From a virus: a stretch of 31,061 nt of DNA. The DNA is taken from the IMG/VR virus record IMGVR_UViG_3300029767_000022, positions 1-31,061 of that record. One strand, written 5' to 3'. Below the pieces are notes generated by a model that was given only the letters and a program-made list of their open reading frames with translations, had not been told where the DNA came from and made no database searches. Position 1 is the first letter of the stretch; the number at the start of each line of letters is the position of its first letter. Positions 3,191-21,944 of this stretch are shown here, in pieces. A program made the translations under genes and the position numbers.

Positions 3191-4099
3191 GTGTCCGATA
3201 CGAGTATAGCACAGAACTCGGGTTTTTCGATGCTGCCGAATTGGGCGGTGGATGATGACAGGTTGGGTGCCTACGATCTGCTGGTGTATATGGCGCTGAT
3301 ACGTCACGCCGACAACACCGGGCTCTGCTGGCCTAGTTTGGAGAGGCTGGCGAAGGTCGCGCGTTGCTCACAGCCCACGGTATCCAAGAGCCTCAACGTG
3401 CTGGAACAATTGGGGTACATTCGACGGGTCAAGTCCGATGGCAGGGCCAACCGGTATCACGTCTCGCTGTGGAAGCCCACCCCAAAACAGGGTTATGACC
3501 ATGCACCGACCCCAAAACCTGCTTTTGACCATGCACCGACCCCAAAACCTGCTTTTGACCCCCCAAAACCTGCTTTTGACCCACCCCAAAACGAGGTTTT
3601 GACTAACAATACCCAAGAGAATAAAACCCAAGAACAATACTCGCGCGACAAAGAAAAAATTACAGTCGCCTGCCATTCGGTGGATACCCTCAAGGCTCTT
3701 ATGGCGTTGTGGCCAAAGAAGTGCAGGGTGTCTAACGAATTCCTCATGTATTTCAATACGGCTTACGACGAGGTTGGTGCCGATGCGCTTATGAGAGCGG
3801 CGAAGCGTTTCGTGAAATCCTGCGAGGGTACGCCATTGCAGTATGTGCGGACTCTGCCCATGTGGCTGGCCGACTCGGTTAATTGGAGGGTCCAGAAGCC
3901 GGAGCAACGCAGCGAAGCCAAGTTAACGAATTGGATGGCCCATAGGCTTCCCGATTCCATGTCCGCCGACGTGGCGACCGTTCTGCGTGCGAGGCGTGTG
4001 TATTGGGGTGCCACCGGTGGTGTGGAGGCTTTGGAAATGGAATTCTTCCCAGACGAAGTTAAGAATGTGGGCAATTTGCAACAAGAACCAACAGTGTGA
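3191..4099 (+). CDS. Replication initiator-like protein, N-terminal winged-helix DNA-binding domain (302 aa, GTG start)
   Basis: The N-terminus (LPNWAVDDDRLGAYDLLVYMALIRHADNTGLCWPSLERLAKVARCSQPTVSKSLNVLEQLGYIRR) fits the helix-turn-helix replication/DnaD-type phage initiator pattern. A Pro-rich repeat linker DHAPTPKPAF x2 follows. RBS AAAGGTGG precedes GTG 3191. Confidence 0.75.
   Translation: MSDTSIAQNSGFSMLPNWAVDDDRLGAYDLLVYMALIRHADNTGLCWPSLERLAKVARCSQPTVSKSLNVLEQLGYIRRVKSDGRANRYHVSLWKPTPKQGYDHAPTPKPAFDHAPTPKPAFDPPKPAFDPPQNEVLTNNTQENKTQEQYSRDKEKITVACHSVDTLKALMALWPKKCRVSNEFLMYFNTAYDEVGADALMRAAKRFVKSCEGTPLQYVRTLPMWLADSVNWRVQKPEQRSEAKLTNWMAHRLPDSMSADVATVLRARRVYWGATGGVEALEMEFFPDEVKNVGNLQQEPTV
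3476..3592 (+). repeat. Iteron-like direct repeats inside the initiator gene (candidate origin of replication)
   Basis: There are two exact 30-bp units GACCATGCACCGACCCCAAAACCTGCTTTT (3497..3526, 3527..3556) and one 21-bp unit GACCCCCCAAAACCTGCTTTT (3557..3577). Further CCCCAAAAC cores lie at about 3478 and 3583. An AT-rich stretch follows at 3593..3663. Confidence 0.6.
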
Positions 4100-4118
4100 T
4101 ATAATATCTATATCACAC
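4076..4118 (+). promoter_or_regulatory. Extended -10 promoter overlapped by palindromic operator (copy 1)
   Basis: -35 TTGCAA (4076..4081), an 18-nt spacer, and TGATATAAT with -10 at 4100..4105. The palindrome is GTGTGATATA-atatc-TATATCACAC (4094..4118), with perfect 10-bp arms. Confidence 0.6.
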
Positions 4119-4138
4119 ATTGCATGGAAAGGATGCAT

Positions 4139-4537
4139 ATGAAAATCTACACAAACCGATACCACGACTTTACCCCGTCACAAGGCATACCGGTACGCAT
4201 AACGTACGGTTCGCCACGATGGCGACTTTCGTACACAATCGCAGCATCGGCGAAAACAGTGACGCCGGGCCGATGGTTCACGGAAGGAACCGACGAAGAA
4301 TTCACCGAACGGTATCGTGCCATGCTGGACTCACACGGGGTCGCCCGCATCAGAACGGAACTTGAAACGATATCGCAACTCAACGGAGGTAAAGACATCG
4401 TGCTTCTATGCTTCGATGACGTAAAAAAAGGCTTGTGCCACCGAACGATTTTCGCCCAATGGTGGCAGGAAAAGACCGGTGAAGAAGTCAAGGAATTACA
4501 AAAAGGTTTGGAGGCCGATCAAAATGTGCTATTCTAA
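4139..4537 (+). CDS. DUF488-family protein (132 aa)
   Basis: MKIYTNRYHDF...IPVRITYGSPRW...VTPGRWF...EEFTERYRAMLD...DIVLLCFDD...CHRTIFAQWW matches the DUF488 signature (MxIYTxxY ... ISxxxPxW ... LAPs ... Y...L ... vLLCyE...CHR..va.WL). ATG 4139 lies 5 nt after GAAAGGA. The track start 4124 is less likely. Confidence 0.85.
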   Translation: MKIYTNRYHDFTPSQGIPVRITYGSPRWRLSYTIAASAKTVTPGRWFTEGTDEEFTERYRAMLDSHGVARIRTELETISQLNGGKDIVLLCFDDVKKGLCHRTIFAQWWQEKTGEEVKELQKGLEADQNVLF

Positions 4538-4551
4538 TGACCGTTGCTATT

Positions 4552-4624
4552 CCGCCCCTAGCTCACCGGATAGAGCGCCCAATCTCGAATTGGGAGGCAC
4601 CAAGTTCGACTCTTGGGGGGCGGT
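4552..4624 (+). tRNA. tRNA-Arg (anticodon UCG), 73 nt, CCA not encoded
   Basis: Cloverleaf folded by hand. Acceptor stem CCGCCCC/GGGGCGG, then T8 A9. D arm GCTC-ACCGGATA-GAGC. Anticodon arm CCCAA-TCTCGAA-TTGGG. Variable loop AGGCA. T arm CCAAG-TTCGACT-CTTGG. Discriminator T4624. All stems are Watson-Crick. Position 33 is C, not U. Confidence 0.85.
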
Positions 4625-4627
4625 CTG

Positions 4628-6034
4628 ATGGCAGGTTTCAACTCACCGTCCATACTGTTCCTCAACACTTGGGATAAGCCAGAACGTGATTGGAACGGGA
4701 ATCTGTTTAGGCAGGCACTCGCGTCAGGGTATACGCGATACGTCGAACTGTACGCCGGAGCCTTCGCCAACTGCATGGTCGCCGTGGAGAACGGTTGGAA
4801 ACCGGAGCAAATCGAGGCGTGCGACGTGTGGGCGTACACCGCAGCGCTCGGATATGCGTACAGCGGGACGCCTCTCACCGAAATGCGGGCAACCGTTGAC
4901 GGTTCACCAGTCCCGCTCTCAGGAAACGCAGCGGATGACGCGGCTACCGTAATCTTGGCGCAATACCGTATGCGTCTCAGCAAGCACGACGATATCGATT
5001 ACTACCGTGAACTTCTGTCTGATCTTGACATCAACGGTTCGGAACACGTCGGCCAGCTACGGGAGCGAATCGCGGCGAATATGGTCAAGTTGGGGGGGCT
5101 GAGATACGAGCCCACCGACCCGATGAAGTATGCGGAACGCGTTATGGACGACCCGCACGCCATCGTGTTCGCCAATCCCCCTACGTATCCGGGAGCTTAT
5201 GAAAAGTTCTTCGAGACCGGGGGGAGGTTCCAATGGGCGGAACCTGAATACAACGTGTTCAATGCTCCCGTTGATATTCCCAAGCTCTGTAAGCTGTTCG
5301 ATGGGCGTAAGGCGTTGCTGATCTGCCAGCAGCAGCAAACGCCCGGAAACGCCGCAACTGATAGCCCGGTCTACGCTAGGCGTCTGGGTTTGGACAGTGT
5401 GATTTACATGAATTCCAACCGTCCGAACGAGGTCAAACGTCTTGTCGGCGGGAACATGGTGACTGTGGCGGCGTCGAAATCGGCGGAGATACCGATACCG
5501 ATATTGCCCAGAGATCATCAGATTACCGAACGTTCCGAAATCAAGGTCGTACCGTTACGTGATAGTACGGTACAAGACTCGTATCTGCAAGTGATGCGGC
5601 ATAGGATATCGGGAAACGTGAGCCCGATGTGTGTTCTCGTACTAATCGACGGTTACGTTGCCGGGATCATCGGATATGGTTTGCCAAATCCCATGTACAC
5701 GATTCGCTACGCGGTATTGCGTCAAGCATTCGGGGTATCCCACAAACGGTATCGGCTTACGAAGCTGGTCACGATGATAGCGTTACGTCGTTCCACGTTC
5801 CAGCTCTGCGCTAAGCCCAAGACGCAGATACTCGTCGATGCGTGCGATGGGCTGGCAACCGTTGAGTACACGCGATATCCCGAATCCAAGGGACTTCGCG
5901 GCCTGATGAAACTGGACAGACGTGACCGTAAGAACGGACAGTATCAATTGCAGTATAAGAGCGATTGGCACGAAGAGATCGGCTTAAGGAACATTCTCGG
6001 ACAGTTCCTAGCCAAAGAGAACAGGAGGAGATAA
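4628..6034 (+). CDS. Two-domain protein: N-terminal Dam-family (D12-class) adenine-methyltransferase-like domain with atypical NPPTY motif, plus about 170-aa C-terminal domain of unknown function (468 aa)
   Basis: Three landmarks align with E. coli Dam at nearly the same residue numbers: YVELYAGAFA (aa 38-47; Dam LVEPFVGAGS), IVFANPPTYPG (aa 179-189; Dam VVYCDPPYAPL), and ALLICQQQ (aa 229-236; Dam PVLISNHD). The start is set at ATG 4628 because the track start lies inside the tRNA. The C-terminal part (…CVLVLIDGYVAGIIGYG…RLTKLVTMIALRR…) is unassigned. Confidence 0.7.
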   Translation: MAGFNSPSILFLNTWDKPERDWNGNLFRQALASGYTRYVELYAGAFANCMVAVENGWKPEQIEACDVWAYTAALGYAYSGTPLTEMRATVDGSPVPLSGNAADDAATVILAQYRMRLSKHDDIDYYRELLSDLDINGSEHVGQLRERIAANMVKLGGLRYEPTDPMKYAERVMDDPHAIVFANPPTYPGAYEKFFETGGRFQWAEPEYNVFNAPVDIPKLCKLFDGRKALLICQQQQTPGNAATDSPVYARRLGLDSVIYMNSNRPNEVKRLVGGNMVTVAASKSAEIPIPILPRDHQITERSEIKVVPLRDSTVQDSYLQVMRHRISGNVSPMCVLVLIDGYVAGIIGYGLPNPMYTIRYAVLRQAFGVSHKRYRLTKLVTMIALRRSTFQLCAKPKTQILVDACDGLATVEYTRYPESKGLRGLMKLDRRDRKNGQYQLQYKSDWHEEIGLRNILGQFLAKENRRR

Positions 6035-6744
6035 TGGCCGATGTCGACACGTCGCAAGAAATGACCATAGCCGACGGTTTGGTAATCAAGTGGGTTGCCG
6101 TGGTCGATCTCAAGGAACAAGACCTGAACGCGCAGGTCATGGAACCACGTAAGTTCGACGCGCTGACCCAGAACATCAAGCTACGAGGGATGTTGGAGTC
6201 ATTGCCGTACTGTTCGCAACCGAACGGAGAAGGGCCGATAAGTATTGTTTCCGGCCATCATCGTACGAGAGCCGCCGCCCGCGCCGGTATCCAACGTATC
6301 CCGGTTATCGTGGACACGAAGCCTATGACACGTTCCACCATAACGGCGAAGCAGATAGCCGCCAACGAACTCACCGGCCACGCCGACGAGAAACTGTTGG
6401 CGCAGCTGGTCACTCAGATGGACAACGTAGACGACTTGTTGCTCAGCGGACTCGATCAGGACAGCCTACCGCACGTCGAACCGCAGCAAGTCAACCTGAA
6501 CGGTTTGAATGTGAAGTACGAGTATAAGGACGTGGAGTTTTTGTTTCTGCCCCGCGAATACGAAGAACTTGAACAGTTCGTGGATGATTGCAACTCGGAT
6601 ATGCTCGGGTTGGTGCCTATGGAATTGTACGACGAGTTCGTGCATCAGGTGACATCGTTCGCTTCACGTAACGGGATCAGGAATATGGCTGCTGCGGTAT
6701 CCAAGATCATCGATATAGCGAGGAAAGACGCCGAGGAAGAGTGA
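6034..6744 (+). CDS. ParB/Srx-like nuclease-domain protein (236 aa)
   Basis: PISIVSGHHRTRAAARAGIQRIPVIV is the ParB N-terminal (ParBc) GxxR box. ATG 6034 is preceded by AGGAGGAG and overlaps the upstream stop (TAATG 6032..6036). Confidence 0.85.
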   Translation: MADVDTSQEMTIADGLVIKWVAVVDLKEQDLNAQVMEPRKFDALTQNIKLRGMLESLPYCSQPNGEGPISIVSGHHRTRAAARAGIQRIPVIVDTKPMTRSTITAKQIAANELTGHADEKLLAQLVTQMDNVDDLLLSGLDQDSLPHVEPQQVNLNGLNVKYEYKDVEFLFLPREYEELEQFVDDCNSDMLGLVPMELYDEFVHQVTSFASRNGIRNMAAAVSKIIDIARKDAEEE

Positions 6745-6749
6745 TTACA

Positions 6750-6778
6750 GGCCGGGCGAGTCCCGGCCTTTTTGTTTG
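6750..6778 (+). terminator. Rho-independent terminator
   Basis: GGCCGGG-cgagt-CCCGGCC followed by TTTTTGTTT, starting 6 nt after the ParB-like stop. Confidence 0.85.
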
Positions 6779-6814
6779 CATCATAAGACACAATGTGATA
6801 TAATAAATATATCA
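6776..6814 (+). promoter_or_regulatory. Extended -10 promoter overlapped by palindromic operator (copy 2)
   Basis: -35 TTGCAT (6776..6781), a 17-nt spacer, and TGATATAAT with -10 at 6799..6804. The palindrome is TGATATA-ataaa-TATATCA (6796..6814). Confidence 0.6.
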
Positions 6815-21878: not shown

Positions 21879-21944
21879 TATATTTGCTCCAATCGTGTGA
21901 TATTATGAATCATGTTGCTTTTCTCGGGACCTTTTCTCTCCTGC

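Follow-up and report, generated by a model that had tools for sequence, protein, structure and literature searches.

A tRNA gene as a likely component of a widespread phage module with a Dam-like/GNAT fusion protein, and its possible role in aminoacylation of DNA adenine

The DNA studied here comprises positions 1 to 31,061 of IMG/VR virus record IMGVR_UViG_3300029767_000022 (31,061 nucleotides, referred to below as the window), a nearly complete siphovirus genome of about 31 kb in which the early genes are located on the plus strand and the genes for the terminase subunits, portal, capsid, tape measure and a GH25-LysM endolysin on the minus strand. Our analysis concerns positions 4076-6778 of the plus strand, where a promoter, a gene for a DUF488 protein, a tRNA-Arg(UCG), a gene for a 468-aa fusion protein with a Dam-like and a GNAT-like domain, a gene for a ParB-like protein and a terminator form one transcription unit. 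This unit, called the module below, sits between the genes for a replication initiator and an ERF recombinase, with the terminase genes on the opposite strand. An earlier reading made from the letters alone (the sequence-only reading) had described four tightly packed genes between one promoter and one terminator, the last two overlapping at TAATG (6032..6036). This description was borne out, and every element lies at the place given, with correct coordinates and motifs. The elements are the following.

4076..4105, plus strand: promoter, TTGCAA, an 18-nt spacer and a TG-extended TATAAT (promoter scan)
4094-4103 / 4109-4118, no strand: perfect 10-bp inverted repeat, GTGTGATATA / TATATCACAC, overlapping the -10 (repeat search)
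4124..4537, plus strand: DUF488 protein (DUF488-N3a type), 137 aa (Pfam, PHROG)
4552..4625, plus strand: tRNA-Arg(UCG), reported by ARAGORN as Arg(tcg), ending 2 nt before the fusion ATG
4628..6034, plus strand: 468-aa two-domain enzyme (Dam-like and GNAT-like), starting at ATG 4628 (Pfam; AlphaFold2 model, pLDDT 89)
4658..5473, plus strand: DAM-like-phage1 domain, aa 11-282 (PF22555, 179.3 bits, cutoff 27, 1.2e-52)
5174..5188, plus strand: NPPTY motif, aa 183-187
5534..6016, plus strand: GNAT-phage-like domain, aa 303-463 (PF22559, 109.2 bits, cutoff 27, 2.4e-31)
5864..5866, plus strand: codon of E413, in GNAT strand beta5, a residue that tracks the amino acid of the tRNA
6034..6744, plus strand: ParB-like protein, 236 aa, overlapping the fusion gene by TAATG at 6032-6036
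6250-6264, plus strand: SGHHR (box II GxxR) motif of the ParB-like protein
6749..6778, plus strand: intrinsic terminator, stem 6749-6769 with 8 bp (7 G-C) and a 5-nt loop, followed by the T-run TTTTTGTTT

When relatives of the fusion gene are clustered at 90% identity, 31 of 32 clusters have a tRNA or tRNA-like element at most 1.3 kb upstream of it and on its strand; at 70% the count is 13 of 14. The dereplicated lineages with such an element come from several bacterial phyla. In every well-sampled lineage but one, the tRNA gene is located between the DUF488 gene and the fusion gene. A covariance model built from the module tRNAs (R1) was used beside ARAGORN, and it gave 76 matches in 878 kb of module loci, every one of them 5' of the fusion gene on the same strand. 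The gap between tRNA and start codon measures 2 nt in the window, four other lineages have gaps of 0-10 nt, and in Mycobacterium phage Jeon an annotated tRNA-Gly overlaps the start of the fusion gene gp68. The adjacency is kept where the DUF488 or the terminase gene is found elsewhere (the window and loci L056, L058, L059, L061 and L065), and L253, a locus fetched after the idea was formed, shows the same arrangement. The sequence-only reading had treated the tRNA as merely co-expressed; in the comparative data no other partner is linked as tightly to the fusion gene, and they indicate that the tRNA is part of the module, which is the main new result of this work. The literature searched holds no mention of the tRNA component or of the covariation with the GNAT domain described below, although the 2023 paper defining the Pfam families lies outside that literature, leaving priority uncertain. 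A single sampled lineage, an Acidobacteria metagenome-assembled genome (MAG; L112 2065-3462), encodes the fusion and ParB-like proteins with neither a tRNA-like element nor DUF488 in the 2 kb upstream.

The window tRNA is recognized by Rfam (RF00005, 4552-4624, 50.9 bits against a cutoff of 29) and by R1 (69.8 bits). Compared with a canonical elongator tRNA-Arg, it has the cloverleaf score and the Arg anticodon but lacks U33 and the G1-C72 start: its acceptor stem begins C1-G72, C2-G71, G3-C70, C4-G69, with U73 and no encoded CCA, and its anticodon loop is UCUCGAA, with C33. The module tRNAs are of Arg, Lys and Gly types, plus one Gln, and nearly all begin C1-G72/C2-G71. Their anticodons vary within a type (tcg, acg, ccg, tct and gcg for Arg; ctt for Lys; tcc, ccc and acc for Gly), a pattern that conserves the amino acid but not the codon. 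The Gly type occurs singly in Jeon and in Gordonia phage Clawz and as tandem arrays in Oscillospiraceae prophages. The cloverleaf is supported by covariation, acceptor pairs 1-4 (C-G, C-G, G-C, C-G) being almost invariant and pairs 5-7 varying with compensation. By inspection against textbook rules, the synthetase identity elements are kept; besides the anticodon bases these are A20 (Arg type) and A73 (Lys type), and the window tRNA retains A20, C35 and G36.

The features of these tRNAs that face the ribosome are relaxed, as the following comparisons show. C33 is present in 30 of 33 unique module tRNA-Arg sequences, whereas all 27 CC-start tRNA-Arg(tcg) that lack the module, like 146 of 150 other phage tRNAs, have U33. 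A pyrimidine occupies position 37 in 11 module tRNAs and in none of the 150 background tRNAs, none of which has a CC start. Anticodon loops of only 6 nt that still hold TCG, TCT or CCT occur in Microbacterium phage ValentiniPuff and in L058, L085, L087 and L090, and the Gly type lacks the GTTCRA T-loop and the D-loop GG. Kept synthetase identity together with a deviant T-loop and other deviant translation features is also known from staphylococcal cell-wall tRNAGly, which feeds the GNAT-fold FemXAB enzymes and not the ribosome. That tRNA is host-encoded and serves a peptidoglycan precursor as acceptor, whereas the module tRNA is encoded by the phage, in one operon with the enzyme, and would presumably serve DNA as acceptor.

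Several unusual tRNA forms were observed along the way. In Nonomuraea and Streptosporangium prophages, module tRNAs of 91-93 nt carry about 24 nt of structured insertion in the anticodon loop, possibly an intron or else an extended arm (L086 and L092, both 5887-5979; L125 4537-4629). Two to four tandem CC-start tRNA-Gly-like genes, most of which ARAGORN misses, are found in Oscillospiraceae and Clostridia prophages (L118 4969-5192; L119 5561-5902; L120 5560-5902; L121 and L124, both 4857-5185; L101 125-272). The acceptor stem was considered as a module-specific signature and rejected, since at least 120 tRNAs with 5'-CCGC occur in viral contigs, 119 of 120 of them with no module nearby. This prophage tRNA family (C1-G72; L132-L251, e.g. 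L132 8401-8477 and L134 10095-10171) is mostly Arg tcg/tct with some Ile tat and Gln ttg, has canonical U33/R37 loops, and in many cases comes from prophages predicted in isolate genomes. Unlike the acceptor stem, C33 and other decoding features proved to be a useful discriminator of module tRNAs.

The identity of the tRNA is mirrored in the GNAT domain of the fusion protein. Residue 413 is E in 25 of 25 Arg-type and Q in 23 of 24 Lys-type proteins, M in the Oscillospiraceae Gly type, A in Jeon and Clawz, and T in the Gln type; D351 is restricted to the Lys type, and adjoining beta4 positions switch too. The Gly-array lineage is nested in the Lys clade, and this nesting provides at least one clean switch at residue 413. 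Only four columns pass the 80% threshold for three-way specificity positions; they separate Arg from the rest and probably reflect phylogeny. On these alignments, the covariation of residue 413 with tRNA type is suggestive rather than proof of a functional connection.

The C-terminal domain itself can be assigned with confidence. Modelled alone it reaches a pLDDT of 93.7, and Foldseek against the PDB returns GNATs at probability 1.0, with Mom of phage Mu (8bv8) ranking 5th and 11th. Together with the PF22559 match, this confirms the impression of a GNAT/Mom-type core that the sequence-only reading had gained, and the separate search gives a GNAT where an ordinary target-recognition or DNA-binding domain would have contradicted that reading. 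The model runs beta6-beta7-C-terminal helix and lacks the helix-turn-helix (HTH)-like insertion of Mom. The two domains of the fusion protein are equally conserved, and D341, R376, T411, R424 and Y443 of the GNAT domain are invariant. Sequence homology to Mom was rejected at an hhalign probability of 0.4%, and in PF25680, the Mom family, Mom itself scores 2.4e-75 and the window fusion protein has no match.

The N-terminal domain folds like a Rossmann methylase, with aa 69-155 forming a helical insertion. Its invariant residues are G44, D66, P184, P185, E192, W203 and Y208. Motif I reads ExxxGxF, with the second Gly of FxGxG replaced by Phe, and the first residue of motif IV is N in the window, A in the Streptomyces clade and F in Jeon and Clawz, so that only the PP is invariant. 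The sequence-only reading had lined this protein up with E. coli Dam at three landmarks. Their order and positions hold, being co-linear with Dam residues 31-40, 177-187 and 222-229 (YVELYAGAFA is aa 38-47 of the fusion protein), but the alignment has no significance: hhalign gives a probability of 0.55% over 10 columns, covering motif I only, and sequence homology to E. coli Dam was rejected on this basis. A Pfam scan of the fusion protein found no match to PF02086 at E<=0.1, and profile and single-sequence searches with it found no match among PDB sequences. The E. coli Dam homologues listed were all enterobacterial and at least 86% identical to the query, which makes them unfit for a Dam-family profile. 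In BFVD, the best methylase fold match, at rank 4, is a viral D12-class N6-adenine methyltransferase (E 3.8e-4, probability 1.0, TM 0.44, with the N-terminal domain modelled within the whole protein); the PDB fold matches are generic Rossmann methylases at E>1e-3. With the D12 class (Dam, PF02086) the domain shares the order of the motifs (motif I, an acidic residue after beta2, the helical insertion and a PP-aromatic motif), at spacings near those of E. coli Dam. It differs in the variable first residue of motif IV, in the Phe of motif I, in the fusion to a GNAT domain, and in NPPTY, where a Thr is inserted into the catalytic (D/N)PP(Y/F/W) tetrapeptide. The relationship to Dam is thus a weak one, drawn from the order of the motifs, the name of a Pfam family and a single weak match in fold.

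In several Streptomyces and metagenomic homologues, inteins (Hint/LAGLIDADG, about 250-300 aa) are inserted directly after (N/A)PPTY, at profile position 188/189, i.e. window aa 187/188 or nt ~5188. At least nine representative clusters carry them (P0098, P0027, P0119, P0242-P0244, P0266, P0292 and P0294), and their position suggests that this loop is functionally central. The top BFVD match of the fusion protein is A0A8S5SJK3 (695 aa, Siphoviridae sp. ct4Uy2), a full-length distant structural relative (E 6e-18, 475 columns, 15% identity) that is about 200 residues longer; its automatic metagenome name, 'Amidoligase enzyme', is unverified and was given no weight.

The two partner proteins belong to recognizable families. 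As the sequence-only reading had proposed, the downstream protein is ParB-like: its N-terminal domain has the ParB-CTPase fold, scoring 24.7 bits with Pfam ParB_N (PF02195), just below the cutoff of 26.3, and matching the CTP-binding domain of Caulobacter ParB (6t1f) at E 2.9e-4, with box II SGHHRtraA aligned to aGerRwrAA. The stretch SGHHRTRAAARAG corresponds to aa 73-85, the motifs REQDxNA, SGHHR and AKQxAHN are conserved among 24 module homologues, and the protein matches PHROG 7405 at 2e-50. Beyond aa ~95 the Pfam scan found neither HTH_ParB nor any other match. The DUF488 protein scores 26.9 bits with PF22751 (cutoff 27) and 22.2 bits with PF04343, and matches PHROG 2450 at 1.4e-18; C96 and C105-H106-R107 are conserved across modules. 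Its start is likelier to be ATG 4139 than 4124, because that codon is preceded by GGAAAGGA and homologues begin MKIYT. The PHROGs matched by the module proteins are all annotated as unknown function.

The fusion family is broadly distributed. We found 129 homologues in a 90%-identity collection, nearly all of about 480 aa with both domains; PF22555 and PF22559 follow in the same order in 120 homologues listed. Among 1.84 billion proteins, the family comprises 1183 clusters at 50% identity (E<=1e-3), and it is present in 278 viral contigs. Prophages encoding it occur in 46 species, including Streptomyces and other actinomycetes, Lachnospiraceae, Oscillospiraceae, Christensenellaceae, Selenomonadales and Desulfovibrio, and also in MAGs of Acidobacteria, Chloroflexi and Verrucomicrobia. 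A tblastn search of 50,697 phage records recovered the fusion protein in three only (ValentiniPuff once and FP_Brigit twice, i.e. two phages), and in the same records the window DUF488 and ParB-like proteins match an identical set of 18. Jeon gp68 and Clawz gp29 are strong Pfam members of the family; a single-sequence scan of the viral contigs with Jeon gp68 gave no match, and an alignment of two sequences gave one extra locus.

The neighbourhood of the fusion gene is conserved as well. Co-occurrence of the DUF488, Dam-like and ParB-like genes, which the sequence-only reading had proposed examining in related phages, was found across module loci: the ParB-like gene directly follows the fusion gene in every locus long enough, and DUF488 lies upstream in most. 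Of 19 representative loci, at least 14 continue downstream with the genes for the small and large terminase subunits and then the portal; this does not hold for the window, and Jeon and Clawz carry the module with no terminase gene downstream. The ValentiniPuff module is split between the two ends of the genome record (L084 5355-5427, i.e. MH825712.1 62354-62426, and L002 10-1446): the right end holds the DUF488 gene (gp111) and a tRNA-like element that is not annotated and has a 6-nt anticodon loop, and the fusion gene, gp1, starts at nt 10. Several Firmicutes phages and prophages carry a gene for S-adenosylmethionine (SAM) synthetase a few genes upstream of the module (FP_Brigit, L001 2993-4171; L118 2309-3490; L121 2765-3931).

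The proteins alone are not new. Their architecture is already catalogued, computationally only, in Pfam (PF22555, PF22559), a definition that we take to be that of Burroughs & Aravind 2023 (NAR Genom Bioinform). The window proteins are members of this phage system of DUF488-N3a (PF22751), PF22555 and PF22559, with or without ParB, and share its families and neighbourhood; the families are named by fold only. In NCBI and UniRef the Streptomyces homologues are listed as 'putative antirestriction adenine methyltransferase', and NCBIfam and PADLOC gave no match for the fusion protein. No experimental work on the fusion family was found in the literature searched, and searches on the Pfam accessions and on the NCBI product name gave no result.

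The signals bracketing the module were analysed at the nucleotide level. Taken as a single site, the promoter at 4076-4105 scores no better than shuffled sequence. The extended -10 word TGTGATATAAT, allowing at most one mismatch, has six copies on the plus strand of the window against 0.25 expected, a number reached by none of 100 shuffles. These copies are located at 4095, 6794, 7764, 8821, 11165 and 21896; those at 6794, 7764, 8821 and 11165 lie just 5' of plus-strand open reading frames, and the one at 21896 falls among the minus-strand late genes. In the fusion-operon promoter the word is conserved at 90% or more per column in 48 close relatives, and it apparently marks the plus-strand early and middle promoters of the phage. 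The inverted repeat at 4094-4118 is a candidate operator with a possible regulatory role. The terminator at 6749-6778 is conserved in 46 relatives.

Two recently described systems provide the background for an interpretation. Mom of phage Mu, a GNAT enzyme (PF25680), moves Gly from Gly-tRNAGly to N6 of deoxyadenosine in double-stranded DNA, followed by an on-base rearrangement; its tRNA donor was reported in a 2023 preprint and a 2026 paper (Silva et al., Nat Commun 2026, PMC13219725). In their view Mom probably recognizes the tRNA chiefly by its acceptor end, and the HTH-like insertion of Mom (residues ~175-209) is essential for activity (PMC13219725). In addition, HTH-less ParB-like proteins activate, and for some are required by, phage thymine dioxygenases that act post-replicatively on double-stranded DNA (PNAS 2026, PMC13229309). 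Against this background, a multi-part reaction of the Mom type is the most economical reading of the module. Mom and the module are both phage-encoded and have a GNAT fold and a link to tRNA, Gly-type modules exist, the proposed acceptor is adenine N6 in double-stranded DNA, and the presumed purpose is anti-restriction. Mom, however, is a stand-alone GNAT with an HTH-like insertion that uses host Gly-tRNAGly, whereas the module has a minimal GNAT with no detectable sequence similarity to Mom, fused to a Dam-like domain, and brings its own, often non-canonical tRNA (Arg, Lys or Gly) together with ParB-like and DUF488 partners. The 5mYOX/ParB pairs resemble the module in placing a short HTH-less protein of the ParB-CTPase fold, with conserved nucleotide-binding motifs, beside a post-replicative DNA base-modifying enzyme (here a proposed one); they differ in that this enzyme is an unrelated iron/2-oxoglutarate dioxygenase acting on thymine, with no tRNA.

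We tentatively favour the reading that the module carries out Mom-type, tRNA-dependent aminoacylation of DNA adenine, in which a dedicated tRNA would be the donor, the Dam-like domain would flip the base and the ParB-like protein would be the activator. The wider proposal that a phage enzyme family of about 1,200 clusters writes Arg, Lys or Gly onto DNA adenine, the choice being set by a dedicated, translation-insulated tRNA encoded next to it, is possible but doubtful. The chemistry is one that we infer from the gene content, folds, motifs, tRNA linkage and tRNA peculiarities observed here, and it would proceed as follows. The operon would be transcribed from the TGTGATATAAT promoter, and tRNA processing would free the tRNA and leave an almost leaderless mRNA for the fusion enzyme. 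The host CCA-adding enzyme would finish the tRNA and the host arginyl-tRNA synthetase would charge it; with its C33 anticodon loop, the tRNA would be a poor ribosomal substrate. The GNAT-fold domain would accept the arginyl group from the tRNA 3' end, while the Dam-like domain would bind double-stranded DNA and flip an adenine into the NPPTY pocket, where N6 would be the acceptor. Mom-type chemistry on the adenine might then be followed by the same on-base rearrangement. In this scheme the Dam-derived domain would bind the DNA and flip the adenine, tasks for which Mom has its HTH-like insertion; the ParB-like protein would be a DNA-loading or activating partner, and DUF488 may service the tRNA 3' end. 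The product would be a bulky, positively charged adenine adduct shielding phage DNA from restriction or other DNA-targeting defence, and sister lineages would write lysine or glycine, as set by their own tRNA.

A number of observations weigh against this interpretation. Ordinary acetyl-CoA GNATs fit the C-terminal domain as well as Mom does, and acetyl-CoA enzymes are its top fold matches; FemX, L/F-transferase and TacT are absent from the Foldseek top 50 of this domain, and in sequence it shows no similarity to Mom (hhalign probability 0.4%), whose authors hold that the donor cannot be read from structure (PMC13219725). The invariant G44 and D66 would bind SAM adenosine and fit methyl transfer, as does the SAM synthetase gene just upstream in several Firmicutes loci. 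The tRNA types largely follow the clades of the protein tree, so that the residue-413 correlation comes down to about three or four independent switches. The CC-start acceptor is not exclusive to the module; prophage tRNA-Arg, Ile and Gln commonly have it too. Ordinary tRNA-Leu, Trp and Ser genes share the same interval in Oscillospiraceae prophages, which may therefore partly be a tRNA island, and CGA and CGG make up 25% of the Arg codons of the window phage, leaving room for a decoding role. Finally, DUF488 has no assigned step, and aminoacylation of DNA does not explain its presence.

Several of these points would be accommodated if the fusion protein were an ordinary anti-restriction adenine methyltransferase that makes N6-methyladenine from SAM, with the GNAT domain as an acyl-CoA accessory or non-catalytic part and the tRNA as a decoding tRNA or processing signal travelling along. 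The database name of the Streptomyces homologues says as much, the order of the motifs resembles that in class-alpha Dam, and G44 and D66 do not vary. Among methylases, the best match in fold is to a D12-class methyltransferase, and FP_Brigit, L118 and L121 carry a SAM synthetase gene upstream. Acetyl-CoA enzymes head the fold matches of the GNAT domain, and the window tRNA is a good Rfam tRNA in a phage that uses CGA and CGG codons. We nevertheless consider this not very likely: the catalytic Asn/Asp that methyltransferases need in motif IV is replaced by Ala in the Streptomyces clade and by Phe in Jeon and Clawz, although the PP-aromatic core is kept, and the aromatic residue is preceded by an inserted Thr. 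Neither PF02086 nor E. coli Dam is matched significantly, and the GNAT domain is no less conserved than the Dam-like domain. A methyltransferase would also leave unexplained why a tRNA is kept beside the fusion gene across phyla, why the amino acid is conserved rather than the codon, and why U33, R37, loop length or T-loop are lost while the stems covary.

The tRNA could instead be the target, in that the module would make, mark or repair a phage tRNA against anticodon nucleases or other tRNA-directed defences, the Dam-like domain acting on a tRNA adenine, the GNAT domain acylating the tRNA or its aminoacyl group, and DUF488 and the ParB-like protein healing RNA ends. Anticodon nucleases classically attack tRNA-Lys and tRNA-Arg, and escape tRNAs whose anticodon loop is altered are known from phages. 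In the abstract of their 2023 work, Burroughs and Aravind are said to predict that the DUF488 clade acts on RNA termini and sugar phosphates. The C33 and position 37 changes could block cleavage, and GNATs that act on tRNA exist, namely TacT, AtaT and TmcA (PMC13219725); on anticodon-nuclease escape tRNAs we also point to PMC12409363. A role of this kind is hard to square with the 6-nt loops, the 24-nt insertion and the loss of the T-loop motif and D-loop GG if the tRNA is to decode, and the module contains no RNA ligase. The ParB-like partner and the terminase-proximal position point to DNA, and ParB-like activators are documented for DNA base modification. We regard it as unlikely.

It is highly improbable that the module processes DNA ends or has a role tied to packaging, modifying or trimming genome termini during terminase action instead of bases across the genome: it does lie directly upstream of the terminase and portal genes in most lineages, it straddles the record ends in ValentiniPuff, and novel DNA-end processing is reportedly predicted for the DUF488 clade in the same 2023 abstract, but in the window it lies among early genes on the strand opposite to terminase, Jeon and Clawz have no terminase downstream, the ValentiniPuff numbering may be a convention for a circularly permuted genome, and Dam-like and GNAT domains suggest no DNA-end chemistry.

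If tRNA-dependent aminoacylation of DNA is the correct reading, Mom would no longer be a one-off, and this chemistry would be a family trait in phages of Actinobacteria, Firmicutes and other phyla. Cationic arginyl- or lysyl-derived adenine adducts would be new among natural DNA modifications, the module tRNAs would be a clear case of a virus-encoded tRNA serving outside translation and would explain some of the odd phage tRNAs that annotators discard, and ParB-like and DUF488 proteins would gain a concrete biochemical setting. Such enzymes could also become tools for site-specific DNA labelling. Cultured phages exist for each tRNA type (FP_Brigit for Lys, ValentiniPuff for Arg-like, Jeon and Clawz for Gly), which makes the reading directly testable; should it be wrong, the conserved linkage of tRNA and enzyme would still call for an explanation.

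Upstream of the module, the window gene at 3191-4099 encodes a replication-initiator-like protein (HTH_36; PHROG 270) with a tandem peptide repeat, PTPKPAFD(H/P)..., and DNA repeats within this gene, near 3530-3600, could be iterons.

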